Origin: Oceanispirochaeta sp. | Lineage (GTDB): Bacteria > Spirochaetota > Spirochaetia > DSM-2461 | NCBI GenBank assembly: GCA_963663385.2 | Contig: CAXXXD010000002.1 | Location: 608,001-672,000 of the forward strand | Reading direction: 5' to 3' | Length of the DNA: 64,000 bases | Shown: piece by piece, positions 2,395 to 28,935 of the stretch | How the letters are laid out: every line of letters begins with the position of its first letter | How positions within the stretch are numbered: position 1 is the first letter of the stretch | Program-made: the position numbers and the translations under genes | The notes under the pieces: generated by a model | Databases searched by the model: none | The model's input: only the letters and a program-made list of their open reading frames with translations | Told to the model about the DNA's origin: nothing

Positions 2395-2423
2395 TTGACG
2401 ATTCCGGAAAAGGATAGTATTAT
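2395..2423 (+). promoter_or_regulatory. Sigma-70 promoter upstream of the phytase gene
   Basis: TTGACG (2395-2400), 17 bp, TATTAT (2418-2423). Confidence 0.65.
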
Positions 2424-2424
2424 T

Positions 2425-2440
2425 ACTTAAACGTTTTCGT
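2425..2440. promoter_or_regulatory. LacI-family operator O1
   Basis: ACTTAAACGTTTTCGT with central AAACGTTT core, directly after the -10 box; 14/16 identical to the site at 4393. Confidence 0.7.
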
Positions 2441-2456
2441 AAAGTTTGGATTTCAG

Positions 2457-2474
2457 TGAGCACACGTGTGCTCA
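2457..2474. repeat. Perfect 18-bp palindrome
   Basis: TGAGCACACGTGTGCTCA read directly. Confidence 0.9.
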
Positions 2475-2800
2475 AAAGTGAGATTTTTACTGGTTATTTT
2501 TAATAGTTAAATTTAATATTCTCTTTAAACTATTATTGTGTAAAAACATAGAAGGAGTCTGGTTTCTCTCTGCGATATATATAAGACCAGCAAAAAGCCG
2601 GTATAAAGCAGCTTCGTGAAATTTGCTTTTCCATCCCGTGATCTGAAGAGGTTAATTTATGCAACAGTAAACAAATGTATATTATATGCTTCCCTTTTTA
2701 TTTTCATCCCGAGGATATGCCTGTATCAGCATAGGGTGATACATCGATCAATAGTCATGGTCGAAAAAGATCTTAAATGCACTACTTAAAGGAGATTTGC

Positions 2801-4231
2801 ATGAAAAAAATTACATGGCTGATTTTTCTGATGTTTGTATCAGTATCGGTTTTTGCAACCGGGGTTCAGGATACCGGGAGTATGGAAACAGCGACCAGTG
2901 TCACTGGCCAGGATCTGTATCTGGGATCAAAGGTTCCCTATCCCGGACCGGGTACGGCTGAATTGACACCTCCTCCCGCCGGGTATGAGGCCAATTTTAT
3001 ATACTGGCTGAACAGACATGGTTCAAGGAACCTGTCAGGGTTCAAATATGATAAATCCTGGCTGGATATGATTGCCCTGGCCGAGTCGGAAGGGCAGTTG
3101 AAGGATATGGGCAGGACTGTTAAGGCGGATATCCAGAAAATAGCTGATTATGAAAAAGGAAAATACGGCCTGCTGACCCTGCTGGGGAAAAACGAGCTGT
3201 ATCATATCGGCCAGAGGACAGGCGTTGTTTATAGTGATCTTTTTGACTCGGACAGACCACTGCTTGCCGATGCTACCCGGAAAGAGAGAACTCAAGAGTC
3301 CCGGGACAGTTTCCTGACAGGGCTTCTGACAACGGGATACGAGGGGGAAATTACCTCAACCTACTTTAAAAAAGGGGTGGATCCCTATCTGAGGGCTCTG
3401 GATATTGCTCCTCAATACGATGAATATAAGGAAGAGGGTGACTGGCAGAGAAATATTGAGGCTTTCTCCGAAACGGATGAAGCCAGGGTGATGACCGAAC
3501 GGGTCGTTTCCCAGTTTTTTGAACCGGAGTTTGTGGAGAGGCTGGATAAGGGCGAGTTTGAATTTGTCAGTGAGGAAGATGATACAATAATCAAGAGCCT
3601 GGCAACCGCGACAAACGCTCTGTGGGAAATGTATATCATCCTTCCCGCTCTCAAGGATGACGGTTTTGCCGATGTGGATATGAGCGGGTATTTCAATGAA
3701 AAAGAGCTGCAGTTTTTTGAAAAGGTTCAGAATGCCAAATCATTCTATACAAAAGGCCCCGGAGCTGTTGATGAGGACCCGATTGCCCTCAATATTATGG
3801 CGCCTCTGGCTAAAAGGATGATCAATGAAGTAGACGCTTCCCTGTCGGGAGAATCTCCCTATCTGGGTGTTTTCAGCTTTGCCCATGCGGAAACCGTTGT
3901 TCCCCTTGTCGGTTTTCTGGAAATTGAAGAATCTGCCGTTCCCAGTGACGACATCGCAAAGGCTATTGAGTATTGGGACGTGGCTTATTATGGTCCGATG
4001 GCTGCCAACCTGGAATGGATCGTGTATACCGCAGACGGGAAAGAGCCTCTTGTAAAAATGCTGCTTAATGAAAATGAAACAACATTTGCCAGGTCCATTG
4101 AACCTGTTTCCGGTCCTTACTATAAATGGTCCGATATCCGGGCCTACTATGGTGAAAAGGTTGATAAGCTGGGATTCGGTCTCAATACGACTCTGGAAGA
4201 GAATATTGCAACTCTGGAGACCAGGTACTGA
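2801..4231 (+). CDS. Exported histidine acid phosphatase, MINPP/phytase type
   Basis: RHGSRNL catalytic motif, FAHAET (HAE proton-donor motif of MINPPs), PMAANL; signal peptide MKKITWLIFLMFVSVSVFA. Start set at ATG 2801 after AAAGGAG. Confidence 0.85.
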   Translation: MKKITWLIFLMFVSVSVFATGVQDTGSMETATSVTGQDLYLGSKVPYPGPGTAELTPPPAGYEANFIYWLNRHGSRNLSGFKYDKSWLDMIALAESEGQLKDMGRTVKADIQKIADYEKGKYGLLTLLGKNELYHIGQRTGVVYSDLFDSDRPLLADATRKERTQESRDSFLTGLLTTGYEGEITSTYFKKGVDPYLRALDIAPQYDEYKEEGDWQRNIEAFSETDEARVMTERVVSQFFEPEFVERLDKGEFEFVSEEDDTIIKSLATATNALWEMYIILPALKDDGFADVDMSGYFNEKELQFFEKVQNAKSFYTKGPGAVDEDPIALNIMAPLAKRMINEVDASLSGESPYLGVFSFAHAETVVPLVGFLEIEESAVPSDDIAKAIEYWDVAYYGPMAANLEWIVYTADGKEPLVKMLLNENETTFARSIEPVSGPYYKWSDIRAYYGEKVDKLGFGLNTTLEENIATLETRY

Positions 4232-4362
4232 GATCCTCTGCGTCTTTTCAGAGACAGGATTGAACCCCGATCATGGATCATGAGATCCGGTGTGGTTTCT
4301 TTCCCGATTGAGGATTCTGAATAGGGTGAGATAATGAAAAGGGAAGTTTTTTATATTTTTCC

Positions 4363-4391
4363 TTGACGGCACCAGGAATCGCCTGTACTAT
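4363..4391 (+). promoter_or_regulatory. Sigma-70 promoter of the LacI gene
   Basis: TTGACG (4363-4368), 17 bp, TACTAT (4386-4391); same -35 and layout as the promoter at 2395. Confidence 0.7.
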
Positions 4392-4392
4392 A

Positions 4393-4408
4393 ACTTAAAC
4401 GTTATAGT
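4393..4408. promoter_or_regulatory. LacI-family operator O2
   Basis: ACTTAAACGTTATAGT, 1 bp after the -10 box, the same offset as O1. Confidence 0.75.
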
Positions 4409-4420
4409 ACAGGGAGCCTG

Positions 4421-5428
4421 ATGAGAGTCACCATCAAGGATATTGCAAAAAAAGCGGGTGTTTCCACTGCTGCCGTATCAAAAGCTTTGAATGGCCAGCC
4501 GGATATCGGGGAACGCACAAAAGAGCGGATACTCAGTATCAGCAGGGAACTCGGTTACACTCCGAATATGATTGCCAGGAATCTTGTTACCAAGGGCAAT
4601 AAAACCATTGGTGTTCTGATACCCGATATCTCTACACCGATCTATCCCAGTATTTACAAGGGGATAAATGAAACCGCGGTGAAGTATGGTTATACCCTGC
4701 TTCTCGGCGATACCAAGAGAAGTTTGCAAAGTGAAAGAGATTATATACTGACAATGATGGAGAACAGGGTTTCCGGCCTTCTTGTAAGCCCTGTCAGCAA
4801 CAGTATTGATCATTTGGAGGAGGTTGTAAAAGGACAGATTCCTATCATTTATTTCGGTGGAAAAGTAAATGATTCGATGGAAAATTATATTGGAATCGAT
4901 AACTACCGGGGTGCGATCTTTGCGATGGAACACCTTATGGGGTTAGGGCATCGTGATATCGCTATGCTTTGCGATGATCTGATAACCAAAACCCGACAGG
5001 ACAGGGTGAGCGGCTATAAGTATGTAATGGAAAAAAAACACTGCGAACCCAGGATCCTTGTTAACAGGGACGGTCTGAAAGGACGGGAATGCGGGTATTA
5101 CATCACAAAATCATTGCTGGATGGTGACAGTAAACTGCCAACTGCCATTTTTGCTTTAAATGATCTGATGGCTATTGGTGTTATGGAAGCTTTAAGTGAA
5201 AAAGGAATTCGTGTTCCGGAAGACGTTTCTGTCGTGGGATATGACGATATTTCCTATGCTTCTCTGCCAATGATTGGTTTAACAACAGTCTGGCAGCCAA
5301 AGTTTAAAGTAGGAGAGATGGCAATGGAGCTGCTCTATAACAAGCTGAGAGCCGAGGGCCAGGAAGACAGCAGGAATATTATTCTTGATACGGAGCTTCG
5401 CATCCGGACTTCAACGAAGGCAGTATAA
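4421..5428 (+). CDS. LacI-family transcriptional repressor
   Basis: [36 protein letters not shown] hinge, [11 protein letters not shown]. Confidence 0.95.
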
Positions 5429-5444
5429 TTTTTTTTGGAATAAA

Positions 5445-5460
5445 ACTATAACGTTTAAGT
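5445..5460. promoter_or_regulatory. LacI-family operator O3 (exact reverse complement of O2)
   Basis: ACTATAACGTTTAAGT is the reverse complement of 4393-4408; lies upstream of the PHP gene. Confidence 0.75.
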
Positions 5461-5498
5461 TTTCTAATTCTATGATTATTGAATGGAGGAGCGTCCCG

Positions 5499-6191
5499 AT
5501 GGGAAGCTATAGATACGAAACCCATACACATACAGCTGATGTAAGCAGTTGCGGTCATGTTAAGGCGGACGAAGCCGTGCGGATGCACAAAAAGGCCGGG
5601 TATCAGGGAATGGTTCTGACAGATCATTTTAACGAAGATTTCTTTTCCCGATTCGGATCCGTAAGCTGGGAAGAAAAAATCGATGCCTATATGAAGGGCT
5701 ATATTGTAGCGTTAGGCGAAGCTGAAAAATATGATATGGATATTCTTCTAGGGCTTGAACTGAGGTTTACAGAGAATAACAATGATTATCTTGTCTACGG
5801 GCTTGATGAAGCATATTTGAAAGAGAACAGAGATCTTCATCATTCAACCATTAAGGATTTTATGAAGAGTCTGAAAAACCGCAGTGATGTTCTTGTTTAT
5901 CAGGCACACCCCTTCAGGGACGGCTGCCGTATTGTTGATCCCCTGATTGTGCATGGATTGGAGATCTTCAACGGAAATCCCAGGCATGATGACAGAAACG
6001 AGCTGGCTGCCGAGGTTGCTCTCGATAACCAGATGCTTGTTATTTCAGGCTCGGATTTTCACAGGCCGGGAGATCTGGCTTCAGGCGGGATCCTTCTTGA
6101 TGAAAGGGTTACAAATAATGCCGAATTAATCCGGCAGTTAAAAAAACTGGAATATAAATCATTAGTTAAAAAGGATGTAATATGCGTATAG
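5499..6191 (+). CDS. PHP-domain phosphoesterase
   Basis: ETHTHT, LTDHF, GLELRF, QAHPFR, GSDFH metal-binding motifs; start at ATG 5499 after GGAGG. Confidence 0.88.
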   Translation: MGSYRYETHTHTADVSSCGHVKADEAVRMHKKAGYQGMVLTDHFNEDFFSRFGSVSWEEKIDAYMKGYIVALGEAEKYDMDILLGLELRFTENNNDYLVYGLDEAYLKENRDLHHSTIKDFMKSLKNRSDVLVYQAHPFRDGCRIVDPLIVHGLEIFNGNPRHDDRNELAAEVALDNQMLVISGSDFHRPGDLASGGILLDERVTNNAELIRQLKKLEYKSLVKKDVICV

Positions 6192-6943
6192 ATACGATTC
6201 TATTTGATATGGGCGGAACCCTGGAGGACATCCGCTATTCTGAAGATATAGGATCAAAGGTTGCCGGAAATATTGCCGGTATTCTGGACATTGATCCTGT
6301 CGTGTTCTCTACAGACGGAGATGAGGATTTTTATGAAATCCTTCAAAAGCAGTATGGTGTTTACCGGAAATTCAGAGAAGAAACCATGATAGAAGTTCAC
6401 CCGGCCATGGTCTGGAAGGACTGGATTCTGAAGGATTTTCCAATTCCCGCAGACAGGATTTTTGACCATTATGAGGATCTGGCCTATTTCTGGGAAACTG
6501 AGGTCATCACGCGCCGCTGCAGAGAAGAAGTCCGGGATGTTCTGGACGGATTGAAAAAAAGGAAGATCCGTCTGGGAATTATAAGTAATACAGGCAGTTT
6601 TACACAGGTTCATAAGTCTATTGAGAAATACGGGATTAAGGACTACTTTGAATACATCGCTCTCTCCAGTTCCTATGGCATCCGTAAACCTCACGGGTTT
6701 CTGTTCCGGGACGCCCTGAACCAGATGGGATGTGAAGCATCAAAGACCATGTATGTGGGTGATACCATTTCCCGGGATATTGTGGGTGCCAAAGGAGCCG
6801 GCCTGTTCGGAGCTATCCAAATCAAATCCGGTTTTACCGGATTAAGTGACAAAGGGCATAAGAATGAGCTGGAGCCTGATTATGTTATTCATAACCTTTT
6901 AAAGGTTACCGAAATTGTCGATGGTCTGAATCAGGCCGGATAG
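6182..6943 (+). CDS. HAD-superfamily hydrolase (phosphatase)
   Basis: FDMGGTL motif I, ISNT motif II, RKP, YVGDTISRDIVGA motif IV; overlaps the PHP stop. Confidence 0.9.
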   Translation: MRIDTILFDMGGTLEDIRYSEDIGSKVAGNIAGILDIDPVVFSTDGDEDFYEILQKQYGVYRKFREETMIEVHPAMVWKDWILKDFPIPADRIFDHYEDLAYFWETEVITRRCREEVRDVLDGLKKRKIRLGIISNTGSFTQVHKSIEKYGIKDYFEYIALSSSYGIRKPHGFLFRDALNQMGCEASKTMYVGDTISRDIVGAKGAGLFGAIQIKSGFTGLSDKGHKNELEPDYVIHNLLKVTEIVDGLNQAG

Positions 6944-6973
6944 GGGGGATTTATATGAAACAGGAGGAGCTAA

Positions 6974-8812
6974 ATGGAAATAACAGCCAAATTGCAAAAG
7001 GTTAAAATTCCAGTGAACAAATTAAATTTGTATCTAAACCGTATTAAAAACTATTTTCAGAATGCGCAGAACCTGATCAGTATTCTCTCTATTGCTGTTC
7101 TGATTTATCTGGTTGTTTTCCCTCTATGGGAAATTCTGACAACCACTTTCCAGCTTCAGTTCAGAGATGCTTTGAAACTCGGAATTCCGGAAGGATCTTT
7201 TACATTCCGCTATTGGGCCGCAACATTCGCCAGCAAGATCAGCACGGCCATGTTCTATAAACCCCTTATGAACTCGTTGATGATATCACTGAGTGTTTCC
7301 TTCTTCGGAATCCTGATCGGGGGTATACTGGCCTGGCTTGTCTCCCGGACAGACCTGCCCCTGAAGAAGTTCTTCTCTTTTATACTTGTGGTTGCCTATA
7401 TGGTACCATCCTGGAGTAAAGCGCTGGCCTGGGAGGTCGTATTCAAAAATGACAGAATCGGCGGTTATCCCGGGATGTTCCAGTCTCTGTTCGGAGTCAG
7501 TCCTCCCAACTGGATTTCCTACGGGTTTGTCCCTATCGTTGTAACCCTGTCGCTTCATTATTTTGTATTCTCCTTTCTGCTGATTTCATCGGCCCTTGCT
7601 TCAATCGGTGGGGATCTGGAGGAAATGGCGGAAATTACAGGAGCCAAAAGGACAACCATTTTAAGAAAAATTACTTTTCCCCTTGTACTGCCGGCTATCC
7701 TGTCATCCTTTATTCTGACATTTTCAAAAGCCCTGGGATCATTCGGCGCTCCGGCTTTTCTGGGGATGAAAGTGAACTATTATACTTTGTCCACCATGAT
7801 TTATTCCAATATCCGGAACCGGTTGACCACTCAGGCTTTTACACTGGGACTCGTTCTGCTGGTTGTTGCCAGTTTCACGGTTTACCTGAATCAGAAAGCT
7901 ATAGGTAAAAGGAAAAGTTTCACGACTATCGGAGGAAAGAGTACCAGAACGAATCTTATAAAACTGAAAAAGCTTAAACCGCTTATTACGGCTGCGGTTC
8001 TCTGTTTTGTGATTCTGGGTGTGATGATGCCTCTGCTGGTTCTTATTCTGCAGAGTGTTATGCTGGAATCAGGTGTGTACAGCTTTGATAATCTGACGCT
8101 GCACTTCTGGATCGGAGAAGGAACTCCGGCGATTGCCGATGGTGAGGCGGGAATCTTTCATAATCCCCGGATATGGTCGGCTCTGGGAAATACCCTGAAG
8201 CTGGTGGGAGTCGTATCCCTGATCGCTACTGTTGCGGGATTACTTTTGGGATATATCATCTCCAGGGGCAGAAAGAAAATCAGCGGCAGATTCATTGAGC
8301 AGATTTCCTTCACACCCATGCTGATCCCGTCTATCGCTCTGAGTACGATCTATCTGTCCATGTTTTCCAAGCCCCAGCTGTTTATACCGGTTCTGTATGG
8401 AACCTTTGCTCTGCTGGTACTGATCAGTATTGTCAAGTATCTGCCATTTGCGGTTCGTTCCGGAACCAGCAGTATGATGCAGATTAACACAGAACTGGAA
8501 GAAGCGGGAAAAATTGAAGGGGCATCCTGGACGAGGATATTCAGAAGACTGATCCTCCCACTGGCAAAAGGCGGGGTATTCAGTGCTTTTCTGCTGATTT
8601 TTATCAGCGGGATGAAAGAACTGGCCCTCATAATGCTTCTGGTTACCCCGAAAACTGCAACCTTGACGACATTGACATATTCCTACTCCGAATCGGGTTT
8701 TGAGCAGTTTTCCAATGCAATCACGACGTTAATTATTTTTATCATTATCCTGGTGAATTTTATCGCCAGAAAAGTTAGTAAAGCAGATATTTCCAAGGGA
8801 ATGGGAGGTTGA
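6974..8812 (+). CDS. ABC permease, fused two-domain (FbpB/AfuB-like)
   Basis: Two EAA loops (LEEMAEITGA, LEEAGKIEGA) and about 12 hydrophobic segments. Confidence 0.88.
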   Translation: MEITAKLQKVKIPVNKLNLYLNRIKNYFQNAQNLISILSIAVLIYLVVFPLWEILTTTFQLQFRDALKLGIPEGSFTFRYWAATFASKISTAMFYKPLMNSLMISLSVSFFGILIGGILAWLVSRTDLPLKKFFSFILVVAYMVPSWSKALAWEVVFKNDRIGGYPGMFQSLFGVSPPNWISYGFVPIVVTLSLHYFVFSFLLISSALASIGGDLEEMAEITGAKRTTILRKITFPLVLPAILSSFILTFSKALGSFGAPAFLGMKVNYYTLSTMIYSNIRNRLTTQAFTLGLVLLVVASFTVYLNQKAIGKRKSFTTIGGKSTRTNLIKLKKLKPLITAAVLCFVILGVMMPLLVLILQSVMLESGVYSFDNLTLHFWIGEGTPAIADGEAGIFHNPRIWSALGNTLKLVGVVSLIATVAGLLLGYIISRGRKKISGRFIEQISFTPMLIPSIALSTIYLSMFSKPQLFIPVLYGTFALLVLISIVKYLPFAVRSGTSSMMQINTELEEAGKIEGASWTRIFRRLILPLAKGGVFSAFLLIFISGMKELALIMLLVTPKTATLTTLTYSYSESGFEQFSNAITTLIIFIIILVNFIARKVSKADISKGMGG

Positions 8813-8813
8813 G

Positions 8814-9947
8814 ATGAGCCGTATTGAACTGAACAAAGTAAATAAATTTTATGATAAAGTGCATATTCTGAAAGATGTGGATCTGGTGATTGAACAGGGA
8901 GACTTCATGACTCTTCTGGGACCTTCCGGGTGCGGAAAAACTACCACACTACGGGTGATTTCCGGCCTGGAAAACCCCCAGAGCGGAACGGTCGTTATAG
9001 ACGGGGATGCCGTGGCGGATCCGGAATCCGGTCGGTTTGCGCCCCCTTCCAAAAGGAACCTTAATCTGGTTTTTCAGAGCTACGCTCTCTGGCCTCATAT
9101 GACTGTATTTGATAATGTGGCTTTCGGACTGACTGTTAAAAAGATGGCAAAAGATGAAATCCGGAAAAAAGTCCTGTCCGCCCTTGAAAAGATGCAGATC
9201 AGGGAGTATGCCGAGAGGTATCCTTCCGAACTGTCCGGAGGGCAGCAGCAGAGGGTGGCCATCGCACGGGCGATTGTTTCCCAGCCGAAGATCCTTCTTC
9301 TGGATGAACCCCTCTCCAATCTGGATGCCAAACTCCGTGTCGATATGAGAGCAGAGCTTAAAAGGCTGCATAAGGATCTGAATACGACGATTATTTATGT
9401 TACCCACGATCAGGTTGAAGCACTGACTCTCTCTTCCAAGATCGCGGTCTATTTTGAAGGTGTGCTGACCCAGTGTAACAGTCCGGCGGAAATCTACAAT
9501 AATCCCGCTACTCTTAAAGTCGCTGAATTTATCGGGAACCCCAAGATTAATTTCATAAAAGGCGCTGCAAGGGGTGTTTCCGGCGATAAGATGACATTGC
9601 AGTGTGACTTTGGAGAACTGGTTCTGGAGGACTTGAGTAAACGGGAAAATGGAGTGGAATCCCGAAAGGCTATCGCTGATTCCCCGTTGACCCTTGCGAT
9701 ACGGCCGGAGGATATCCTGATCAGTGTATCCGAAAAACCGGGTTACTTTCCCTGTCAGGTCTCTTCCATTCTCCCTGCCGGGTCGGAGACGCTGCTTGAA
9801 CTGGAACTGGGGCAGTCTACGGTAATGGCCAAGGAGATCGGTTCCAAGAGTTATGAAATGGGAGATACCGTTTGGGCCCATTTTAAGCAGGACAGGCTGA
9901 ATCTCTACAACAATGAAAGCGAGGAACTGATCATCCGGGCTGTCTGA
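8814..9947 (+). CDS. ABC ATP-binding subunit (FbpC/PotA-like, C-terminal TOBE)
   Basis: GPSGCGKT, LSGGQQQR, LLLDEPLSNLDAKLR, YVTHDQ. Confidence 0.95.
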   Translation: MSRIELNKVNKFYDKVHILKDVDLVIEQGDFMTLLGPSGCGKTTTLRVISGLENPQSGTVVIDGDAVADPESGRFAPPSKRNLNLVFQSYALWPHMTVFDNVAFGLTVKKMAKDEIRKKVLSALEKMQIREYAERYPSELSGGQQQRVAIARAIVSQPKILLLDEPLSNLDAKLRVDMRAELKRLHKDLNTTIIYVTHDQVEALTLSSKIAVYFEGVLTQCNSPAEIYNNPATLKVAEFIGNPKINFIKGAARGVSGDKMTLQCDFGELVLEDLSKRENGVESRKAIADSPLTLAIRPEDILISVSEKPGYFPCQVSSILPAGSETLLELELGQSTVMAKEIGSKSYEMGDTVWAHFKQDRLNLYNNESEELIIRAV

Positions 9948-9969
9948 TAGTTTTTATATCATAAGGGTT

Positions 9970-10001
9970 TCAGGGGGATGCTCTACGGGTTGTCTCCCTG
10001 A
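9970..10001 (+). other. Intercistronic stem-loop
   Basis: TCAGGGGGATG...TGTCTCCCTGA pairs with G-U wobbles; no U tract follows. Confidence 0.4.
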
Positions 10002-10032
10002 TAAATAATAAGAATTTTAAAAGGAGTATTTT

Positions 10033-11205
10033 ATGAAGATTACTGGAAAACTGGGCTTTATCGCTTTGAGCGTTTTAGTCATGATTTCGGCGGTATCCTG
10101 CACCAAGAAGGGTGATGTGTCCATGTCCGTCAGGGAGAATATCTCCTGGGATGAAAAAGTCGGGCTTGATGATCAGTTGAGCGGAGACGAGCTGTATGCA
10201 AAAGCTAAAGAGGAAGGAACTGTTACGATTTACTCAATGTCCAGCCGTTTTAACGATGTAAAAGAGACCTTTGAAGCCCAGTACCCCGGGATTGAGGTTG
10301 TTGTATACGATATGCGAAATTCAGAAATCGTAGAGAAATTCCAGAGAGAGCATGAAGCGCAGATACGTAATGCGGACCTGTTGTTTATCAAGGATACGGA
10401 TGGAGGTGTTTTTACTGAGTTTGTCAGTATGGGATTACTGAAAGAGTATATTCCTGAAGATATGATGAAAACTGCTCCGGCAACGTTTCAGAAAGGCGCC
10501 TATGTCCCCTATTTTGAGATGAAACAACTATTCTACAATACGGAAGTATACGACTCCTGTCCGATGGACAGCTGGTGGGATCTGACAAGACCTGAATACA
10601 AAAGTAAAATCATTCTGAGAAGCCCCATTGAGAATTCGGAAACCATGGGTCTGTTTATGGCCATAGTCAATAACAGCGATGAGATGGCTGCTGCCTATAA
10701 AAAAGAGTTCGGAGAAGATATTGTACTGAACGGGACAGAAAATGCCGGATATGAGTTTTTGAAAAGGCTGTCGGATAATGATCTGATCGTCATGACTTCC
10801 GATACGGATATTACCAAAGCGGTAGGTGCGCCCGGGCAGGAAAATCCTCCTTTCGGTATTGCTACTTCCAGTAAAATGCGGAAGGCCGGCGACAAGCTTC
10901 TTATCAATGTGGCAGAAGATCTGTCTCCCCGCCTGGGTATACTGGATCCTGCTTTTCTTTATATTGCCGATCAGGCTGAGCATGTCAATGCCGCAAAACT
11001 TATGATGAGATGGGTTGGTGGAGAAAAGGACGGAACAGGACCCGGTTTCAAGCCCTTTCATGTAAGAGGCTCCTGGCCTTCAAGACTGGATGTTGCTCCT
11101 ATCGATACACCTGCACTGGACTCATTAAACCTCTGGGATCTTGATCTGAAACAGAACTACCTGATGCTGGATGATATGAGAACTTTCTGGATGACTCTGC
11201 AGTAG
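10033..11205 (+). CDS. ABC substrate-binding lipoprotein (AfuA/FbpA-like)
   Basis: Lipobox AVSC; LYAKAKEEGTVTIYS, SWWDLTRPEYK and HVNAAKL are typical of this SBP cluster. Confidence 0.85.
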   Translation: MKITGKLGFIALSVLVMISAVSCTKKGDVSMSVRENISWDEKVGLDDQLSGDELYAKAKEEGTVTIYSMSSRFNDVKETFEAQYPGIEVVVYDMRNSEIVEKFQREHEAQIRNADLLFIKDTDGGVFTEFVSMGLLKEYIPEDMMKTAPATFQKGAYVPYFEMKQLFYNTEVYDSCPMDSWWDLTRPEYKSKIILRSPIENSETMGLFMAIVNNSDEMAAAYKKEFGEDIVLNGTENAGYEFLKRLSDNDLIVMTSDTDITKAVGAPGQENPPFGIATSSKMRKAGDKLLINVAEDLSPRLGILDPAFLYIADQAEHVNAAKLMMRWVGGEKDGTGPGFKPFHVRGSWPSRLDVAPIDTPALDSLNLWDLDLKQNYLMLDDMRTFWMTLQ

Positions 11206-11214
11206 GAAATATTA

Positions 11215-11242
11215 CCCTCCTTCCGGTTGATCCGGAGGAGGG
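11215..11242 (+). terminator. Stem-loop after the SBP gene (attenuator or mRNA stabiliser)
   Basis: CCCTCC-T-TCCGG / CCGGA-GGAGGG with 5-nt loop; weak U tract. Confidence 0.5.
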
Positions 11243-11264
11243 GAGTTTAACAAAGGAAAACTTT

Positions 11265-12146
11265 ATGCAATTTGATATCACAATGATTGGTCATATCTGT
11301 AAAGACACTCTGTTCGATATGAACGAAAAAAGCGAAAGCCCCGGCGGAGCTGTTTACTTCTCCTCCATTGCCGCCGCGAGAAGCGGAGCCCGCATTCATG
11401 TTGTTACCATGGCCTCGGAATCGGATGACAGTCTTTTTGACGTTATGCGAAGTGATGGGATATCTGTTACAAGATTAGCATCGGATCAAACAACTCAGAT
11501 TACTCTTAAATACGATTCCCCGGAGAGGGAGAGACGGGAGGTTATCCTCGACTGCCAGGCAGCACCCTTTGCTGTTAATGATTTTCCGGAATCAAAAAGT
11601 TCTATCTACCACCTGGCAGGATTGTTTAAAGGGGAAATCCCGGATGATTTTATCCCTTATCTTTCCCGTAAGGGAGATGTCGCCCTGGATGTACAGGGGG
11701 TCTTAAGATGTAGCGAAGGGGGAAATCTTATCTTTAAAAAATGGGACAGGGTTAAGGAGATGCTCCCGTATATAAAGTATTTAAAGACGGATGCGGCGGA
11801 GGCGGAAATTTTGACAGGAGAGACCGATCGGGAAAAGGCCGGCAGAATACTGAATAAAATGGGTGCCGCTGAAGTAATGATTACCCACAATGAAGAAGTT
11901 ATTATCTGTACCGGGGAGAATATTATTAAAGCGCCCTATAATCCGTCCAATTTGTCCGGCCGGACGGGCAGGGGAGACACCACTTTTGCCGCCTATCTGG
12001 CAAAACGGATAGACCGAGAGCCCTACGAATCCCTCTTTTATGCAGCAGCTCTCTGTTCCATCAAAATGGAGACTCCGGGGCCGTTTAATCAGGGGATCAG
12101 CGAGGTGTATAAGCGAATGGATAGTCTGGGGTATAGGCAAAGGTGA
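11265..12146 (+). CDS. PfkB/ribokinase-family kinase
   Basis: IGHICKD, PGGAVYF, LDVQG, LKTDAAEA, GRTGRGDTTFAAY (PfkB signature 2 variant). Confidence 0.88.
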   Translation: MQFDITMIGHICKDTLFDMNEKSESPGGAVYFSSIAAARSGARIHVVTMASESDDSLFDVMRSDGISVTRLASDQTTQITLKYDSPERERREVILDCQAAPFAVNDFPESKSSIYHLAGLFKGEIPDDFIPYLSRKGDVALDVQGVLRCSEGGNLIFKKWDRVKEMLPYIKYLKTDAAEAEILTGETDREKAGRILNKMGAAEVMITHNEEVIICTGENIIKAPYNPSNLSGRTGRGDTTFAAYLAKRIDREPYESLFYAAALCSIKMETPGPFNQGISEVYKRMDSLGYRQR

Positions 12147-19966: not shown

Positions 19967-20752
19967 ATGAACATCAAGTCTGTGCTTTTCTTTATTATCT
20001 TAATGACGTTCTGGCAAATCTTTGCCCTTCCTGTCAGCACAAGTTCTACTCTACTCAATATGGAAGTTTCAGCTGATTTCCTAACAATAGGTGAGGTTTC
20101 TACCTCTTCCCTCTGGTACGAGACGGTTATGCCGGGGTATAAAATCAATTACACTTACAATTATCTCAATCGGAAAAATCAGCTTCATCAGTTTGGGCTT
20201 GGAATCAAGTATTTTGAAAGTAATACATTTAAACTGAATTCCGCCGACCTGGATCCGGGTGATCTGAGATATCTCTCTGTTAATCTTAACGGGGATTATA
20301 AACGTTATCTCCCGATACGGACTCATGTTGATTATATTACGGGCATTGAAATGGCCGGTGCTTACAACAGTTTTGGACAGGTCATAACCTATAATGCAGC
20401 TCGAATAGATAGTTCCTGCTTCTTTAAGATAGGCTCTCTGAATGGTATTTCCTTCAATATCCGGGACCGAATGGAATTTAAAACGCTTCTCTCTTTACAT
20501 GCGGGTCTTCCCGTATATGGTTCTATAGACTATCCCGATGATGTTGAACAAAGTGTGAAACCTTATAATCTGGGAATGAATTTTCATTCGGGGATTTCTG
20601 CTGATATCAGGGATATTTATCTTTGCTTGTACTACGATTGGTTCTACGACTATATTCTATTGCTGGATGATTCCAGTGATTATTTTACTCCCGAAGGCCT
20701 CAGGCCTGAAAGCATCCACAGTATTGGACTGCAAGTCGGAGTGAGGTTATGA
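19967..20752 (+). CDS. Hypothetical exported protein, probable outer-membrane beta-barrel
   Basis: Signal peptide ending QIFA; alternating aromatic/glycine strands; C-terminus IGLQVGVRL. Confidence 0.6.
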   Translation: MNIKSVLFFIILMTFWQIFALPVSTSSTLLNMEVSADFLTIGEVSTSSLWYETVMPGYKINYTYNYLNRKNQLHQFGLGIKYFESNTFKLNSADLDPGDLRYLSVNLNGDYKRYLPIRTHVDYITGIEMAGAYNSFGQVITYNAARIDSSCFFKIGSLNGISFNIRDRMEFKTLLSLHAGLPVYGSIDYPDDVEQSVKPYNLGMNFHSGISADIRDIYLCLYYDWFYDYILLLDDSSDYFTPEGLRPESIHSIGLQVGVRL

Positions 20753-21474
20753 AGTCTGTTCTTAAATTGATTCTACTGGCTATACTTGTTTCCTGTTCGA
20801 TCATAGTAGAGCCAGATGAATATGAAACCATCGAAGGAGATTCTTGTATAGTCATCTGTGACGGTTCTTTCTCCAGAGAAGAATATGAGAGCATTCAGGT
20901 AATGGCCGACCTGGCTATTGCAGATATCCGGGAGTTTACAGGAATTGATTTGACATTTCTCATCCCTTTTTATTTTGAAGATAGGACTGTACAAAACGCT
21001 GACGGATTTGCTTTAGGAAATGGGATTTATCTCAGAAGTAGTTTCCTGTCTTATGACACGGAATACCAGCGCTATCTTTTAAGGCATGAAATAACACATC
21101 TGTTTTTCTCATTGAATTTCGGATATACAACATCGTTTCTTTTCTCTGAAGGGACGGCTGAGTATTTCTCTCATAATATGGTATACGATAAAGGATCAAC
21201 CTCTTTCAAGGATGAACTTGAAGACTGGATAGAACTGTCCTATATCCAGTATTTTCTCAACGAAGAGGAATATACAGAGATCAATGAAGATTTATATCTG
21301 CTAAGTTACCAGTTTATATATTTTTGGAGCAAAACCTACGGAGAAAACAGTTTATTCGAACTTTACCCGGAGATTACTGCCGAGAATATTGTTGAAAAAT
21401 TGGAAGACTACAGCCGCATTGATTTTGACGAATTAGCTTACAATTTTCGCTGTTTTATAGGAAATGATACATGA
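20749..21474 (+). CDS. Lipoprotein with gluzincin (peptidase MA-like) zinc motif
   Basis: Lipobox ILVSC; GFA, HEITH, then FSEGTAEY; ATGA overlap with the previous gene. Confidence 0.75.
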   Translation: MKSVLKLILLAILVSCSIIVEPDEYETIEGDSCIVICDGSFSREEYESIQVMADLAIADIREFTGIDLTFLIPFYFEDRTVQNADGFALGNGIYLRSSFLSYDTEYQRYLLRHEITHLFFSLNFGYTTSFLFSEGTAEYFSHNMVYDKGSTSFKDELEDWIELSYIQYFLNEEEYTEINEDLYLLSYQFIYFWSKTYGENSLFELYPEITAENIVEKLEDYSRIDFDELAYNFRCFIGNDT

Positions 21475-22763
21475 AAAAATCTATGCTTGTTTCAACCCTT
21501 ATGTTCTTCCTGTTAATATCATGTCATCAACTGGATTTGAGCGAAACTGAAGATGAAACTTCTGATAATTCGGATTTTATATCCGAGATTACTCTGGATG
21601 ATGGAGGTGAGAGTGAGAGGATTTATATCGGCTATAGTGAACTGAATCCTCTTTTGGTGAAAGTTCCCGTTATACAGAATTCCGGATATTTTAAATTGAC
21701 TCTTTCACCAGCTTCGGCGGGAGCCCGTTCAATTTATAGGGGAGATATAGCTGTAAGGGTTTATGATGACAGATCTTTTATAGGAGACAGCCTGTATACT
21801 GTTTTTTCCAACTGGGTTGATGGCAATCTTGAATTCTATTTTCTTTCGGATGGCCTGGAAAAGAACATTGTTCTTTATCACGATGATGAAGAAGCAGAAG
21901 GGGATTGTATTTTTAATGCCTCTGTTGAATCAATTGATTATGAGGTTGACCTGAGCTTACAATCCGATGATACATTTCTGCGGTCCCTCTCTCCGGGAAT
22001 CCCCGTTAGCGCAACAGTTCCTTACTGGGGGAGTATTACATATTCATATGAAATAAAGAGTATCATAATTGATCAGGAGTATGAACTGATTGTCTCCTGG
22101 GATAAAACCGCTTCTCCACTGCCTATCAAATCGGAAATTATTTCCAGATTATATGAAGTTGATGATGATTACAGTATTGAGGAGCTTTATCGGTGCAGCC
22201 AGGAGACAGGGGAATCCCGCATTTTTCGCATCATTTCCGATATGGGGAGTACTGGAACTGTTGACGGTGTTACTGCTTTGGACTTAGATAACTGCTATAC
22301 GGGGGATACATTTCAGGTTAATTTGAGAGAGGCAACGTCTCACGTTTTCTCTCCTGATCCCTTTGAACCCGATCAGGGGCCTGTCGCGGCATCGATTGAT
22401 AGTATTTCGGGCAGTCAAACCAGCAGTGCTGTACACACTTTCATAAACGATGATATTGATTGGGTGAAGTGGCAGCCCTGGGGGTCCGGGGAGTACAAAT
22501 TTTATCTGGAGCTGGATGATGCCTGGTATATTGACGGAGTGACTGAAGGGATTGAATATAAAGTGATTGTCCATTTAGTAAGCAGGAACGGGGCAGAGAT
22601 TGAAGTATATAAGTCTTACAGCTTTACCGAACCGCCTGTCAATCCTATTATCAGTAGCGATATATTGGAATACACACTGGAGACGGATACAGGGGAACCC
22701 CTTTATTTTGAGATAATTGCAGACGATGAGATAAGCTACAGGATCATTGCTGAAAAACTGTAA
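21471..22763 (+). CDS. Acidic lipoprotein with probable beta-sandwich/pre-peptidase-C-terminal-like domains
   Basis: Lipobox LLISC; PDPFEPD...DDIDWVKW motif; ATGA overlap. Confidence 0.6.
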   Translation: MKKSMLVSTLMFFLLISCHQLDLSETEDETSDNSDFISEITLDDGGESERIYIGYSELNPLLVKVPVIQNSGYFKLTLSPASAGARSIYRGDIAVRVYDDRSFIGDSLYTVFSNWVDGNLEFYFLSDGLEKNIVLYHDDEEAEGDCIFNASVESIDYEVDLSLQSDDTFLRSLSPGIPVSATVPYWGSITYSYEIKSIIIDQEYELIVSWDKTASPLPIKSEIISRLYEVDDDYSIEELYRCSQETGESRIFRIISDMGSTGTVDGVTALDLDNCYTGDTFQVNLREATSHVFSPDPFEPDQGPVAASIDSISGSQTSSAVHTFINDDIDWVKWQPWGSGEYKFYLELDDAWYIDGVTEGIEYKVIVHLVSRNGAEIEVYKSYSFTEPPVNPIISSDILEYTLETDTGEPLYFEIIADDEISYRIIAEKL

Positions 22764-22972: not shown

Positions 22973-23873
22973 ATGAATCACCCCGCACATAAAATCTGTA
23001 TTGTGTTTCTTGTTCTTTACTGTATCTTCCCTGTTTCCGCCCAGTTCGGAGGAAGACCTGGAGGAGCAGACGGACTTGTCGGAGTCGCCGGTTCGGCAAA
23101 GCAGGGTGATTACCGTAGGCGGCCGTCTAACCCCCTTTCGGAAAATAGATCACTCTTTTACTGTAAACGGCTATGTGGACACCCTTCTTGTCAAGGCGGG
23201 AGACCGGGTTCGGTCCGGTTCCCCCCTGGTGAAAATAACACGGGAGGTGATTGGGGAAACCTATCGCCCGGTTATCCTCGAGTCCCGAATCGACGGGATC
23301 GTATCAGAGATTAATGTTTATGAAAAAGAGGAAGTATCGGGCGGACAGTCGGCAGTAACGGTTCTGGATGACAGTCTCTACCTTCTTATGGTAAGCCTGA
23401 GTGACCGGGATGCTCAGGCCGTAAGAAACCTGGGGCGTATTTCTGTAAAAGGGGTTTCGCCGGAAGGAGCGGAATTCTCCGGAAAAATACGGGATATCAC
23501 TACAGAACCTGACTATACGACGGGGCTTTTTACCCTGACAATGGAGTTTCCCCGAAACCGGGATCTGTACCTGGGGTCCGTTCTGTTTGTAGACCTGCCT
23601 GTCCAGAAGGCTGCGGGTATTTCGATTGATCTGTCCGCTTTGGTAAGAGAGGGGGATTCCGACTTTATCTGGGTGCTGAATAAAGAGAACACCCTGGAAA
23701 AAAGGCCTATAGTTCCGGGAGAGGAACAGGATGATAAAATCGCTGTTACTGAAGGAATGACCGCTGGAGAACGGTATGTCCGTAAACCGGGCGGGCTTGA
23801 AAAAGCAGGCATGACCATACGGGAGCTGGTACAGGCCAATATGGCCGGTAATCCGGAACAGGAAAAAAGATAA
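22973..23873 (+). CDS. RND periplasmic adaptor (MFP); N-terminus apparently in a different frame from the body
   Basis: The body (ORF 23001-23873) has the lipoyl-like GYVDTLLVKAGDRVRSGSPL and ESRIDGIVSEI. The only ATG with an RBS (AGGAG, ATG 22973) opens a signal peptide in another frame. Confidence 0.75.
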
Positions 23874-26800
23874 TGCTGCCCCTGATATTTCGAAAATCCA
23901 CAGGATTCTTTCTTCTGGTCGTACTTATGATTATTTCAGGGTTCATTGTATTGTTCCGGCTTCCCGTCATGATGTATCCCCAAACCCGTCGCCCCCAGGT
24001 TATGGTTCAATTGAGTCATCCCGGTATATCTGCCGTGGATTTTCAGGAACAGTATGCCGAGGACATCGAATCCGTTCTGATGTCCCTGACGGACCTGGAC
24101 CTTCTGGAAACGACCTACTCCACAGATTCCAGCCGCTTCAATCTTACCTTCAACTGGAATGTGGACAGTGATGATGCCAGAACCGCTGTCGAGAATCAGA
24201 TGGTTTCCATAAATGCCTCTTTACCCGATGTGATCAAGGACTCCTACAGTGTCCGTTACTGGCAGGGAGAAAATGCCGGTTACATGGTTATGGGGCTGAC
24301 TTCTCCGTCAACTCCCTCGGAGGAGCTTTACTATATTCTGAAAAACAATATCGAACCCCGTCTATTGAAAATCCCGGATGTGGAAGAGATAGGTTTCTAT
24401 AATACCAGACGCCTTATTGTGGACATTGAACTGGAGCAGAAAAAGATGCTTTCCTACGGGATTACCATCAACGATGTCAACCAGGCCCTGCAGTCGGGAT
24501 TCCTGCCCCAGCCTCTGGGATCCATAGATACGGAAGAGGGAAGACTGAGCGTCCGGTTAAAGAGAAATGACAGAAGCCTGGAAAAACTGTCCCGTCTGGA
24601 AATCCGTCAGGTGGGCGATTCCAGCATCACCCTGGATGATATCGCTCTTCTGGATATCCGGTATACCCTTCCTTCCCGGGTTTTTCTGGTTGAGGGAACT
24701 CCGGCCGTTCAGTTAACCGCCACACCCCTGGAAGGGGGAAATGTCAGTTCCATGACCAGTGATATTCAGGAAATCCTGTACCAGGGAATCGAGAACGGTT
24801 TGATCCCGGCCGATACGGATATGGCCCTTTATCTTGATCCGGCCAAGTATATTCAAAACTCAATCAGAAATGTTATACAGGCAGCCCTGCTGGGCGGGTT
24901 TCTGGCTATAACAGTTGTTTTTCTTATTCTGGGAGAGTGGAAAAATACAATCCTTATTGCGGCTTCTCTGCCTGTGACCATAATTATAAGTTTTCTGTTT
25001 ATGGGTATTTTCGGTGTCTCCATTAACCTTATCTCATTGGGAGGACTGGCTCTGGCCGTGGGGATGATAGTGGATTCAACGATCGTTGTTATGGAGAACA
25101 TCCATCGGCACAGACTGGAATCGGAAGGGGCCGAGCGTATTGTCCACTGGAAGACCGTTGTTCTGGATGCGGTAGACCAGGTCCGTTCCCCCGTGATTGC
25201 GTCCACCCTGACTTCGGTTCTGGTTTTTCTCCCCATCTCCTTTACGGCTCCCCTGACCAATGCCATCCTGGGCGATCAGGCCCGAACGGTCGTGTTTGCC
25301 CTGCTGGGTTCTCTGCTTGTTTCTCTGACTCTGGTTCCGGTTCTGGCTTTTTATGCTTTTATGGGGCATCAGAAAAAGGGACAGATCACAGGCCGGCTTC
25401 AGAGGGGGGACGAGAAAATGTTTCACGGGTTGATCGCTCTTTACAGCAGGAGCCTGAAATGGATACTGCGGAGAAAATACAGGGCGGCCCTGTTTCTGCT
25501 TTCAGCTTTCGGTATCCTCCTTTTTTCTCTCTTTGCCGTACTGCCCCGGATCCCCCGGGAGATTATTTCCGTTCCGACTTCCGACCGGGTCGTCCTGTTT
25601 TTCCGAAACTCCGATATTTCCGATCCGGAAGTGTATCTGAAAGAGATCATTCCGGAAATGAATGCCAGAATCGATGCTGTTCTGGGAGATCTTCTTCTGG
25701 AGCGGTTTACCAATCTTTCGGGCCGGTTTAACCAGACCTTCCTCGATCTGCGCAGCTCCGATGATACGGAGGAAGCCATTTCCCGTTTACAGAACGCCTT
25801 TGTTTCGGAAGGAGACTGGTACTACAATGTGATGGCATGGGATCCCGCTGCGCTGCCCCTCCCCCGGAGTTTTGATTTCCAGCTCAGCCTGTTCGGTCCG
25901 GATGCCGCGGAAAAGGTGAAGCTCCTGGCCTCTATTCAAACTCTTCTGAATGAGGAGGGGATATTCCGCCGGACATTTACCGAACCCTCCTCATCCATTA
26001 TTCAGCAGCTGAACCTGACTGCCCGGGAGGAGACCATAAACAGTTTCGCCTCTCTTTCCGAATCAGGCCTGACATCCCTGATCAGGCGTATTTTAAGCGG
26101 GACAAGCTCAATCACCCTTACGGACGGAACCGAAGATGTGGAAGTTTCTGCGGATTACCCTTCCGAACTGATAGACAGCCGGGAGGAACTGGAGGATTTT
26201 CTGATTCCCTGGCAGCAGCACTTTATCCCGCTGAAACACTTTTTCAACTTCAGTTCAAACAGTGGGGTGTCTCAGGTATACAGTGAAAACGGAGAGCCCG
26301 CCTTCCGGATTTACGGAATGGCCGGGTTTCAGATCAGCGACAGCAAACGCCTTGAGATGCAGCGGGAGGCGGAGCAGTTCCTTTCGGAAAATCTGGTTCT
26401 CCCGGAGGGGTACAGCTATACTTTCGATAACCCCAGGGTAGAGATGGACAGGGCCATTCAGTCCCTTTTTATAGCGCTGGGAATTTCAATCGTACTGATT
26501 TATCTTCTTCTGGCCTTTCAGTTTAACTCCCTCTGGATTCCTATGGTTATCCTTGTGACGATCCCTCTCGGGTTTGTGGGAGTTGTATTCAGTCTCTGGC
26601 TTTTTAATTCCACCCTGAACCTGAACTCCCTTCTGGGTACGATTCTTCTGGGAGGGGTCGTTGTGAATAATGCCATTATCATGATCGATTTCTACCTTAG
26701 ATCCAGATTGGAATTCAGCGATTACAGGGAAGCCCTGGCCTATGCCGCCGGAATCCGTTTTCAACCGATAATCATTACTACCCTAACCACCATTTTCGGG

Positions 26801-28443: not shown

Positions 28444-28935
28444 ATGCGTAAACCAAGAGTTCTTATAACGGGGGCCCTATATCATGTAGTGGCAAAAACT
28501 AATCGAGGGGAGTTTATTCTGAATTCCGATGAAGTGAAAGACCTTTTTATGTCTGTTCTGGAATTGGCTCACGAAAAGTATGATTTTAAGATAAAGCATT
28601 TCTGTATAATGAGTAATCATGTTCATCTTCTGATAAAGCCTGGTTTGGATACCAGCCTGTCAGATTTGATGAGGTATGTTTTGAGTGTCTTTGCCGGTAG
28701 ATTTAATAGAATGTTTGGATTGAAGGGACATGTCTGGTATGATAGGTTTAAAAGCATAATCATCCAAAGTTTTAATCAGCTTATAAATACATTCAACTAT
28801 ATTTCCAACAATCCGGTTAAAGCTGGTCTCTGTCTGGATGCCCGAAAATACTTCTATTGTGGATTATATGAACTGAAAAGGAAGCGATTTCGGGTAATGG
28901 AACCACCGGATGAGTGGATGAAACTTGTTCTGTAA
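28444..28935 (+). CDS. REP-associated tyrosine transposase (RAYT, Y1/HUH, IS200-like fold)
   Basis: MRKPR..YHVVAKTN, CIMSNHVHLL (HUH), GHVWYDRFKS, YISNNPVKAGL (catalytic Tyr plus NPVxAG). Confidence 0.88.
   Translation: MRKPRVLITGALYHVVAKTNRGEFILNSDEVKDLFMSVLELAHEKYDFKIKHFCIMSNHVHLLIKPGLDTSLSDLMRYVLSVFAGRFNRMFGLKGHVWYDRFKSIIIQSFNQLINTFNYISNNPVKAGLCLDARKYFYCGLYELKRKRFRVMEPPDEWMKLVL

Follow-up and report, generated by a model that had tools for sequence, protein, structure and literature searches.

Within a 64,000-nucleotide stretch of the Oceanispirochaeta sp. genome (contig CAXXXD010000002.1, positions 608,001 to 672,000; hereafter the window), we examined a cluster of eight genes that may serve in the use of inositol polyphosphates such as phytate (InsP6). 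All eight are arranged in tandem on the + strand, from 2.4 to 12.1 kb. Their products are an exported histidine phosphatase of the MINPP (multiple inositol polyphosphate phosphatase) type, a LacI-family repressor, a PHP-family phosphoesterase, a HAD-IA-like hydrolase, the permease, ATPase and solute-binding protein (SBP) of an ATP-binding cassette (ABC) importer, and a PfkB-family kinase (Table 1). Domain searches confirmed the eight open reading frames (ORFs), their families and their common strand as given in an initial annotation made from the sequence alone, which had read the locus as a regulon for scavenging phytate or inositol phosphates. The start of the PHP gene is placed at ATG 5499, behind the ribosome-binding site GGAGGAG; the listed ORF began at TTG 5385.

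Table 1 Genes and regulatory features of the locus, in window positions.
Feature	Position	Strand	Remarks
P1, promoter-like site, TTGACG-17 nt-TATTAT, 5' of the MINPP gene	2395..2423	+	10/12 matches; conserved in the related genomes G008 and G019
Operator O1, ACTTAAACGTTTTCGT, abutting the P1 -10 element	2425..2440	+	exact genome-wide match; same site upstream of MINPP in G008 (locus L007) and G019 (L010)
AT-rich leader, about 360 nt, O1 to MINPP start	2441..2800	+	contains the palindrome GAGCACACGTGTGCTC
Exported MINPP-type histidine phosphatase	2801..4231	+	His_Phos_2, 8.6e-17; alternative in-frame ATG at 2777
P2, promoter-like site, TTGACG-17 nt-TACTAT, 5' of lacI	4363..4391	+	read from sequence and promoter scan
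Operator O2, ACTTAAACGTTATAGT	4393..4408	+	conserved upstream of lacI in loci L007, L011, L014 and L018
LacI-family repressor	4421..5428	+	LacI helix-turn-helix and Peripla_BP_3/1
Operator O3, the O2 16-mer inverted, in the lacI-PHP spacer	5445..5460	-	conserved between lacI and PHP in L007 and L010 to L014
PHP-family metal-dependent phosphoesterase, 230 aa	5499..6191	+	PHP and PHP_C domains
HAD-IA-like hydrolase, atypical motif I FDMGGT	6182..6943	+	Hydrolase/HAD_2
Fused double ABC permease, 612 aa	6974..8812	+	two BPD_transp_1 domains
ABC ATPase, C-terminal TOBE domain	8814..9947	+	domain search
Lipoprotein SBP, Fbp/Afu/PhnS fold class, proposed inositol-phosphate binder	10033..11205	+	weak Pfam matches SBP_bac_1/6
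TM0415-type PfkB kinase, predicted pyrophosphate-dependent inositol kinase	11265..12146	+	PDB sequence matches

Operators and conservation in related genomes

The genes are tied together by a shared operator. The 16-mer ACTTAAACGTTWTNGT has exactly three perfect copies in the 5,307,927-base genome, all of them in this locus, so that the three operators proposed in the initial annotation are real and do link MINPP, lacI and the genes from PHP to PfkB. The sites are ACTTAAA-CG-TTTAAGT-like, palindromic with a central CG, as for a LacI/GalR repressor, and the lacI product has the N-terminal LacI helix-turn-helix and the periplasmic-binding-like effector domain of that family. It reaches no NCBIfam equivalog; the highest score, 265 bits, is to an RbsR-like model whose cut-off is 382. 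O1 and O2 each lie one base behind a TTGACG-17-TAxTAT promoter-like site, and the P1/O1 and P2/O2 blocks form a 60-nt direct repeat with 70% identity; O2 and O3 form an inverted repeat of 17 nt that is 100% complementary. The region as a whole has no excess of promoter-like sites (18 found, 16.5 expected).

With up to two mismatches allowed, the genome holds 9 matches to the operator and 33 to a reversed-pattern control. A looser 13-mer with two mismatches, searched in the window only, was found three times, a number that 46 of 100 shuffles reached and that is therefore not above chance. Since this looser test is not significant, the case for the operator is built on its exactness, its clustering and its conservation. 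In related genomes the same palindrome occupies the corresponding places, before MINPP, before lacI and in the lacI-PHP spacer, with promoter and operator in alignment, and in one Spirochaetota metagenome-assembled genome (MAG) it is a perfect palindrome, ACTTAAACGTTTAAGT. Because the shared operators are exclusive to the locus and conserved in position, it is most likely that MINPP, lacI and the genes from PHP to PfkB are controlled together as one small regulon.

A further perfect palindrome of 16 nt, GAGCACACGTGTGCTC (window 2456-2480), lies in the MINPP leader about 20 nt downstream of O1; its core, CACACGTGTG, is common to G008 and is not found in G019. It could be the site of a second regulator or an RNA hairpin. 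The 360-nt leader gave no Rfam match at E<=1 and held no convincing small ORF or leader peptide.

A MINPP gene is present in 5 of 41 related genomes, the organism's own included, and an SBP orthologue (at least 57% identity) in six, among them all five with MINPP. The synteny search suggested at the outset found MINPP linked to LacI, PHP, HAD, the ABC importer and the kinase in G008, G019 and G007, in three arrangements. Gene order in G008 is the same as here, and in G019 and G007 the cluster is extended, comprising MINPP, an AfuA-type ABC system, a Cof-type HAD protein, the kinase, LacI, PHP, HAD and the ABC system. The second SBP of these extended clusters (SBP2) is clearly AfuA-type, with matches of 6.6e-75 to 8x1a (VcA0625) and 9.2e-71 to 4r72 (AfuA). 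In another related genome, G003, the MINPP match (L003, contig C15) and the kinase match (C9:128373-129248) each contain one in-frame TAA, which could reflect decay or an error in MAG assembly.

Predicted functions of the encoded proteins

Histidine acid phosphatases carry the canonical N-terminal motif RHGxRxP. The catalytic motif of the window enzyme, NRHGSRNLS, reads RHGSRNL, with leucine in place of the final proline. Its FAHAETV aligns with the FAHAETV of BtMinpp, that is, with the HAE proton-donor motif and not with the HD of the AppA/PhyA type. Read from ATG 2801, 7 nt downstream of AAGGAG, the protein begins with a Sec signal peptide (MKKITWLIFLMFVSVSVFA, with cleavage before TG). The RHGSR and FAHAET motifs and the signal peptide thus agree with the exported RHGxR/HAE phosphatase first described. 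A phmmer search of PDB sequences at E<=10 returned 16 matches, 14 of them MINPP-type (3e-33 to 2e-17) and two at noise level (E>1). BtMinpp came first (4fdt, 3.3e-33, residues 46-464), Bifidobacterium enzymes were also among the matches, and AppA, Agp and PhyA were absent even at this threshold. The question whether the enzyme sides with MINPP or with AppA/Agp is answered by these matches: as firmly as sequence allows, the phosphatase is MINPP-type. It shares the histidine phosphatase fold and the RHG and HAE motifs with the bacterial MINPP phytases of Bacteroides thetaiotaomicron (BtMinpp) and Bifidobacterium, and differs from them in its setting, a cluster joined by shared operators that also encodes an importer, cytoplasmic phosphatases and a kinase.

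The kinase proved more specific than its family name. It is a PfkB protein, as first noted, and a generic sugar kinase does not describe it: it matches TM0415 of Thermotoga maritima at about 1e-45, with the PDB entries 7e4l, 1vk4 and 5ysp at that level, followed by the archaeal myo-inositol 3-kinase 3w4s at 5e-7. According to the accessible text of the paper on this enzyme (PMC5931981), TM0415 phosphorylates myo-inositol to Ins(1)P with pyrophosphate (PPi), not ATP. Donor specificity is ascribed there to K171, F221, R229, R232 and M266 together with the motif RxGRGD, inositol contacts to D11, N78, Q141 and R145, and a changed position of phosphorylation to substitutions at N78, S89 and L116. 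Of 14 acceptors offered, three of them nucleosides, myo-inositol was the one that active homologues used. The Km for inositol was 12 mM, and the discoverers doubted that inositol is the true acceptor and left the role open (PMC5931981).

In the window kinase the RxGRGD motif is present as GRTGRGD (residues 232-238), and K171, R229, R232, M266, D234, D11, Q141 and R145 are identical to TM0415. F221 is replaced by tyrosine, still a large residue, and N78 by leucine. We predict a PPi-dependent inositol kinase. The 30 kinase matches found beside members of the SBP family (27 distinct genes, three being counted in two loci) all keep the donor residues, the catalytic aspartate, D11, Q141 and R145. 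Position 78 is asparagine in 25 of them and leucine in 5, which are the five closest relatives of the window kinase. The same genome encodes a second paralogue, 57% identical and of the N78 type, on contig C2 (about 403.5 kb). Its locus, L099 (C2, about 403.5-413 kb), also contains, some 6 kb away, a LacI-like gene together with the permease and SBP of a true AfuA-type system; this SBP is 77% identical to the SBP2 of the relatives, and L099 is probably a second import module for phosphorylated cyclitols or sugar phosphates.

The organism's metabolism offers a setting for both inositol and PPi. Elsewhere in the genome, IolB and IolD are encoded on contig C3, both over cut-off, and IolG has three such matches, two on C3, so free myo-inositol is probably usable as a carbon source, which fits LacI-type control. 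A PPi-dependent phosphofructokinase (PPi-PFK), pyruvate phosphate dikinase (PPDK) and two membrane pyrophosphatases are likewise encoded, all over cut-off, and a PPi-linked kinase would fit such an energy economy.

The importer was first placed in the AfuABC/Fbp class. Its fold class and its single fused permease bear this out; membership of AfuA at the sequence level does not stand, since the SBP gave no match to AfuA (4r72) or VcA0625 among PDB sequences at E<=0.1. The N-terminus of the SBP (...MISAVSC) reads as a lipobox, and Pfam and NCBIfam gave weak matches only. An AlphaFold2 (AF2) model (pLDDT 89.4) was most similar in Foldseek to MctA, IbpS, PhnS, FbpA/FutA, VcA0625 and P5PA (template-modelling score about 0.65, 13-18% identity). 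This places the SBP in a fold class that includes binders of phosphorylated and polyanionic organic compounds, and does not fix the ligand. The 2-aminoethylphosphonate transporter PhnSTUV is not indicated, as its NCBIfam equivalogs were not reached (PhnU2 143.5 bits against 593, PhnT2 322.5 against 458, PhnS 34.6 against 310); PhnU2, at 143 bits, was the best match of the permease, which is not a member. None of the 321 relatives of the SBP at E<=1e-5 is named beyond 'ABC transporter' or 'iron(III) transport', and the ESM Atlas gave generic 'ABC transporter substrate-binding protein' clusters only. The AfuABC importers (Actinobacillus AfuA, 4r72-4r75; Vibrio VcA0625, 8x1a) thus share the SBP fold class and the fused-permease architecture with the window system, and differ from it in SBP sequence and, as we propose, in cargo, which here would be cyclitol phosphates and not hexose phosphates.

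Two further proteins would act in the cytoplasm. In the PHP protein, H9, H11, D42, H43, E87, H137, H163, D186 and H188, the metal ligands including the HxH motif, are invariant in 15 homologues. No PDB sequence matched it at E<=0.1. Its AF2 model (pLDDT 91.9) is closest to uncharacterised PHP phosphoesterases, TM0559 being the best fold match, with more distant similarity to RNase AM and a 3',5'-bisphosphate nucleotidase; BAD_1165 and Cv1693 are also listed. Its sequence points to a competent phosphoesterase with a complete metal site and unassigned specificity. The HAD-IA-like protein falls below every NCBIfam equivalog cut-off. Motif I reads D-x-G-G-T in all 57 aligned homologue matches, with the nucleophilic aspartate present, and the chemistry of this DxGGT subfamily may differ from that of ordinary HAD phosphatases. 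A role as phosphatase is suggested by its context.

The importer family in other bacteria

We scanned one genome per species for relatives of the SBP, using an alignment of 14 family members, and kept the best 79 loci from 291 relatives. Neighbours were called by tblastn (coverage >=0.5, E<=1e-10), and Pfam scans of six representative loci confirmed the calls; the counts are minima because many contigs are short. The same HAD-IA type stands beside the SBP in 41 of the 79 loci, and the same PHP type in 16. An endonuclease/exonuclease/phosphatase-family (EEP) protein was found in 26 loci, a TM0415-type kinase in 22 (21 with RxGRGD) and a Cof-type HAD in 20. Phytase-type enzymes comprise a protein tyrosine phosphatase-like (PTP-like) phytase (12 loci), a protein combining Kelch and purple-acid-phosphatase domains (3) and MINPP (2).

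The phytase-type partner depends on lineage, with MINPP in spirochaetes, the PTP-like phytase in Paenibacillus and the Kelch/purple-acid phosphatase in Clostridia. That the three lineages have phosphatases of unrelated families in the same place next to a single transporter family, and that two or more of these families are specific for inositol polyphosphates, gives the strongest support for the proposed cargo. In Paenibacillus thalictri, the Pfam scan identified LacI, the phytase (PF14566 PTPlike_phytase), three SBP paralogues, permease, ATPase and Cof. The phytase (L017:9021-9899), encoded between LacI and the three SBP paralogues, has an intact HCRGGVGRT loop and no signal peptide, for which reason highly phosphorylated species may be imported intact in this lineage. 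A locus of Treponema sp. HNW (L029:1010-16329) carries on one strand IolB, an IolD-like thiamine-pyrophosphate enzyme, an IolG-like Gfo/Idh/MocA dehydrogenase, EEP, HAD, permease, ATPase, four tandem SBP paralogues and a MINPP that is 61% identical to the window enzyme, as if inositol catabolism and inositol-phosphate uptake had been fused into one cluster. Anaerovirgula and a Firmicutes MAG combine the Kelch/purple-acid-phosphatase protein with kinase, LacI and dehydrogenases, and in Butyricicoccus pullicaecorum the locus also includes a PHO4 phosphate transporter and PhoU_div.

An inositol-polyphosphate utilisation locus and its alternatives

We put at about 0.7 the probability that the locus is a LacI-repressed system through which an Oceanispirochaeta-type spirochaete uses inositol polyphosphates (phytate and the products of its partial hydrolysis), the activities, ligands and inducer being predicted from the genes, motifs, operators and synteny described above. 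MINPP would trim InsP6 and InsP5 in the periplasm, and the SBP would capture the lower inositol phosphates for import by the ABC system. In the cytoplasm PHP, perhaps with the HAD-like enzyme, would remove the remaining phosphates and release myo-inositol to the iol pathway encoded elsewhere in the genome, and LacI would leave its operators when inositol phosphate or inositol accumulates. The kinase would interconvert inositol and an inositol monophosphate with PPi and inorganic phosphate (Pi).

The initial annotation had arrived at much the same scheme, without a role for the kinase. MINPP, the importer fold, the LacI operators and the neighbourhoods in other phyla speak for it; the missing acid/base residue of the HAD protein, the lack of AfuA sequence membership and the unplaced kinase do not. 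The inositol-phosphate reading gains independent support from the TM0415-type kinase, the SBP-family neighbourhoods and the organism's own iol pathway.

Several points weigh against this reading. A kinase within a dephosphorylation pathway is unexplained, and the scheme offers no account of how InsP6 passes the outer membrane. The HAD protein keeps its family assignment; the motif DxDx(T/V) of HAD phosphatases is absent, the general acid/base at Asp+2 being missing throughout the subfamily. The nearest solved SBP folds bind metal-citrate, Fe(III), 2-aminoethylphosphonate, glucose-6-phosphate and pyridoxal phosphate, so that a ligand cannot be read from the sequence, and an exact genome-wide search found no copy of the operator at the iol genes. 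In G003 MINPP is not linked to the cluster, nor is a second MINPP copy of G007 (contig C2), and outside the close relatives only 2 of the 79 SBP loci include MINPP. In 62 of the 79, many of them on short contigs, no enzyme of the three phytase types was seen within the available DNA. The neighbour counts are not independent trials either, because the phytase-bearing loci fall in three lineages whose members are kin. Purple-acid phytases are described as plant-specific in the accessible part of a pig-gut study (PMC12838507), which makes the Kelch protein a tentative phytase.

The kinase is the weakest link of the scheme, its direction and purpose being the least certain step. In the forward direction it may phosphorylate inositol with PPi to a monophosphate that serves as inducer or as trapped intermediate; alternatively, the reaction may run in reverse. 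Hydrolysis of PPi yields roughly -19 kJ/mol and that of simple phosphate monoesters -9 to -14 kJ/mol; on these energies the reverse reaction would be feasible at a high Pi/PPi ratio and would conserve the last ester as PPi. A bolder proposal, which we regard as speculative and rather unlikely in its entirety, builds on this. The SBP family would define an ABC importer dedicated to inositol polyphosphates, the first of its kind in the Fbp/Afu class, with a range that extends from spirochaetes to Paenibacillus and to Clostridia of the gut, among them Butyricicoccus, Agathobaculum, Oscillibacter and Dysosmobacter. TM0415-type kinases would work in reverse (InsP + Pi to inositol + PPi), keeping the last phosphate ester as PPi for PPi-PFK, PPDK and the membrane pyrophosphatases, and the N78 and L78 paralogues would serve different monophosphate isomers.

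Among the alternatives, general scavenging of sugar phosphates or organophosphates fares best, and we still consider it improbable. Hexose phosphates would be imported as by AfuABC, the exported acid phosphatase would be of broad specificity, and the cytoplasmic phosphatases and kinase would reshuffle sugar phosphates. LacI control suits a carbon source of this kind, the fold class includes the glucose-6-phosphate binders VcA0625 and AfuA and the pyridoxal-phosphate binder P5PA, and a true AfuA homologue is part of the relatives' extended cluster. The window SBP, however, has no AfuA match at E<=0.1, the acceptor residues D11, Q141 and R145 of the kinase match those that hold myo-inositol in TM0415, and the SBP family is neighboured by three inositol-phosphate-specific or phytase-type families and by iol genes.

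A slightly less probable alternative keeps inositol phosphates as cargo and takes them from sources other than phytate, as glycerophosphoinositol or inositol monophosphates released from phosphoinositide lipids or inositol-phosphate osmolytes, with MINPP in a side role. A glycerophosphodiesterase (GDPD) gene upstream of MINPP in G019 is consistent with this, as are the absence of MINPP from most SBP loci and the EEP-family proteins in 26 of them, inositol polyphosphate 5-phosphatases being members of the EEP superfamily. Polyphosphorylated substrates are nevertheless the better match for MINPP, for the PTP-like phytase and for several phosphatases per locus, and the three or four SBP paralogues per locus in Paenibacillus and Treponema suggest that many isomers are handled.

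Salvage of nucleotides or bisphosphate nucleotides, in which PHP would be a phosphatase of the pAp (adenosine 3',5'-bisphosphate) type and the HAD and PfkB proteins would be a nucleotidase and a nucleoside kinase, is very improbable. The PHP fold does resemble Cv1693 and RNase AM, and HAD gave weak YjjG-type nucleotidase matches (70 bits, cut-off 160); the kinase is TM0415-type and no nucleoside kinase, the active homologues having used myo-inositol in a panel with three nucleosides, and no nucleotide genes occur in the Pfam-scanned neighbourhoods. Uptake of iron(III) or metal-citrate, suggested by the JGI name 'iron(III) transport system substrate-binding protein' for several homologues and by MctA, IbpS and FbpA among the nearest folds, is scarcely credible, given LacI control, phosphatase and kinase neighbours across phyla, only 13-18% identity to iron binders and, in the SBP family alignment, no invariant counterpart of the adjacent Tyr-Tyr pair that FbpA uses.

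Plants store most of their organic phosphorus as phytate, which is also abundant in sediments, soils and animal diets. The make-up of the locus under the preferred reading, a route for inositol polyphosphates, has partial precedents. InoEFGK of Thermotoga has two permease genes by naming, against one fused permease and an Fbp/Afu-class SBP here, a comparison by description only. In the 2013 work of Rodionova, InoE reportedly bound inositol phosphate in vitro. The nearest precedent is the Thermotoga inositol regulon as a whole, in which a TM0415-type kinase is encoded with an ABC importer and inositol catabolic genes (accessible text of PMC3750489 and PMC5931981). In T. maritima, TM0415 lies in the iol operon TM0411-TM0416 and InoEFGK is assigned to inositol (PMC3750489); a KEGG-style annotation labels InoEFGK an inositol-phosphate transporter in the accessible part of PMC11767280. 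The Thermotoga regulator is a ROK-family IolR, in contrast to LacI here, and the accessible text reports neither an exported phytase nor a PHP or HAD set (PMC3750489). Mitsuokella jalaludinii likewise turns phytate into a carbon source with a phytase and an inositol utilisation cluster, dephosphorylating it fully and inducing an inositol transporter; the model as given in the accessible text has no inositol-phosphate importer or kinase (PMC7618129). The accessible parts of a 2025 review of gut inositol metabolism (PMC12482443) and of the 2026 pig-gut study (PMC12838507) mention no ABC system and no kinase.

Full-text searches of open-access papers and bioRxiv found no description of MINPP combined with an ABC importer and a PPi-type inositol kinase. 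For an inositol-phosphate or phytate transporter the same literature gave only plant transporters and the KEGG-style InoEFGK labels. The earlier statement that no pathway with this make-up is described therefore agrees with that literature, qualified by the partial precedent in Thermotoga. Phytate use through MINPP is already known; its apparent coupling to a module for inositol-phosphate import and processing with a PPi-type kinase is undescribed, and members of the same importer family stand beside phytases of other types in bacteria from soil and gut. The bacterial phytate literature, in its accessible parts, has dephosphorylation outside the cell followed by inositol uptake. If partly dephosphorylated inositol phosphates are imported instead, a transporter family and cytoplasmic phosphatases can be named for the missing step, PPi-dependent inositol kinases gain a physiological setting, and culturable gut commensals become places to test the idea.

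The surroundings of the locus add little to this picture. Upstream lie an alpha-amylase-family fragment, a MobA-like transferase gene and a Gfo/Idh/MocA oxidoreductase gene (1310-2299), the last a weak IolG relative (81 bits, cut-off 355). We did not count these three in the unit because they have no match in G008, the closest syntenic relative, whose stretch covers about 2.5 kb upstream of MINPP. A convergent GGDEF gene lies 3' of PfkB. Among relatives, a 501-aa ORF between PfkB and lacI in the Oceanispirochaeta locus L014 (2809-4314) matches no Pfam family at E<=1 and has no similarity to MINPP, and a 1009-aa ORF in the extended cluster of G019 (L010:9522-12551) matches no Pfam family at the same threshold. 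Farther along the window, a hybrid histidine kinase gene is separated from a resistance-nodulation-division (RND) efflux operon (23001-28314) by three consecutive + strand ORFs of 261, 241 and 430 aa (19967-22763), none of which has a Pfam family at E<=1e-6, and an IS200-like (Y1_Tnp) transposase gene (28444-28935) stands just 3' of that operon.

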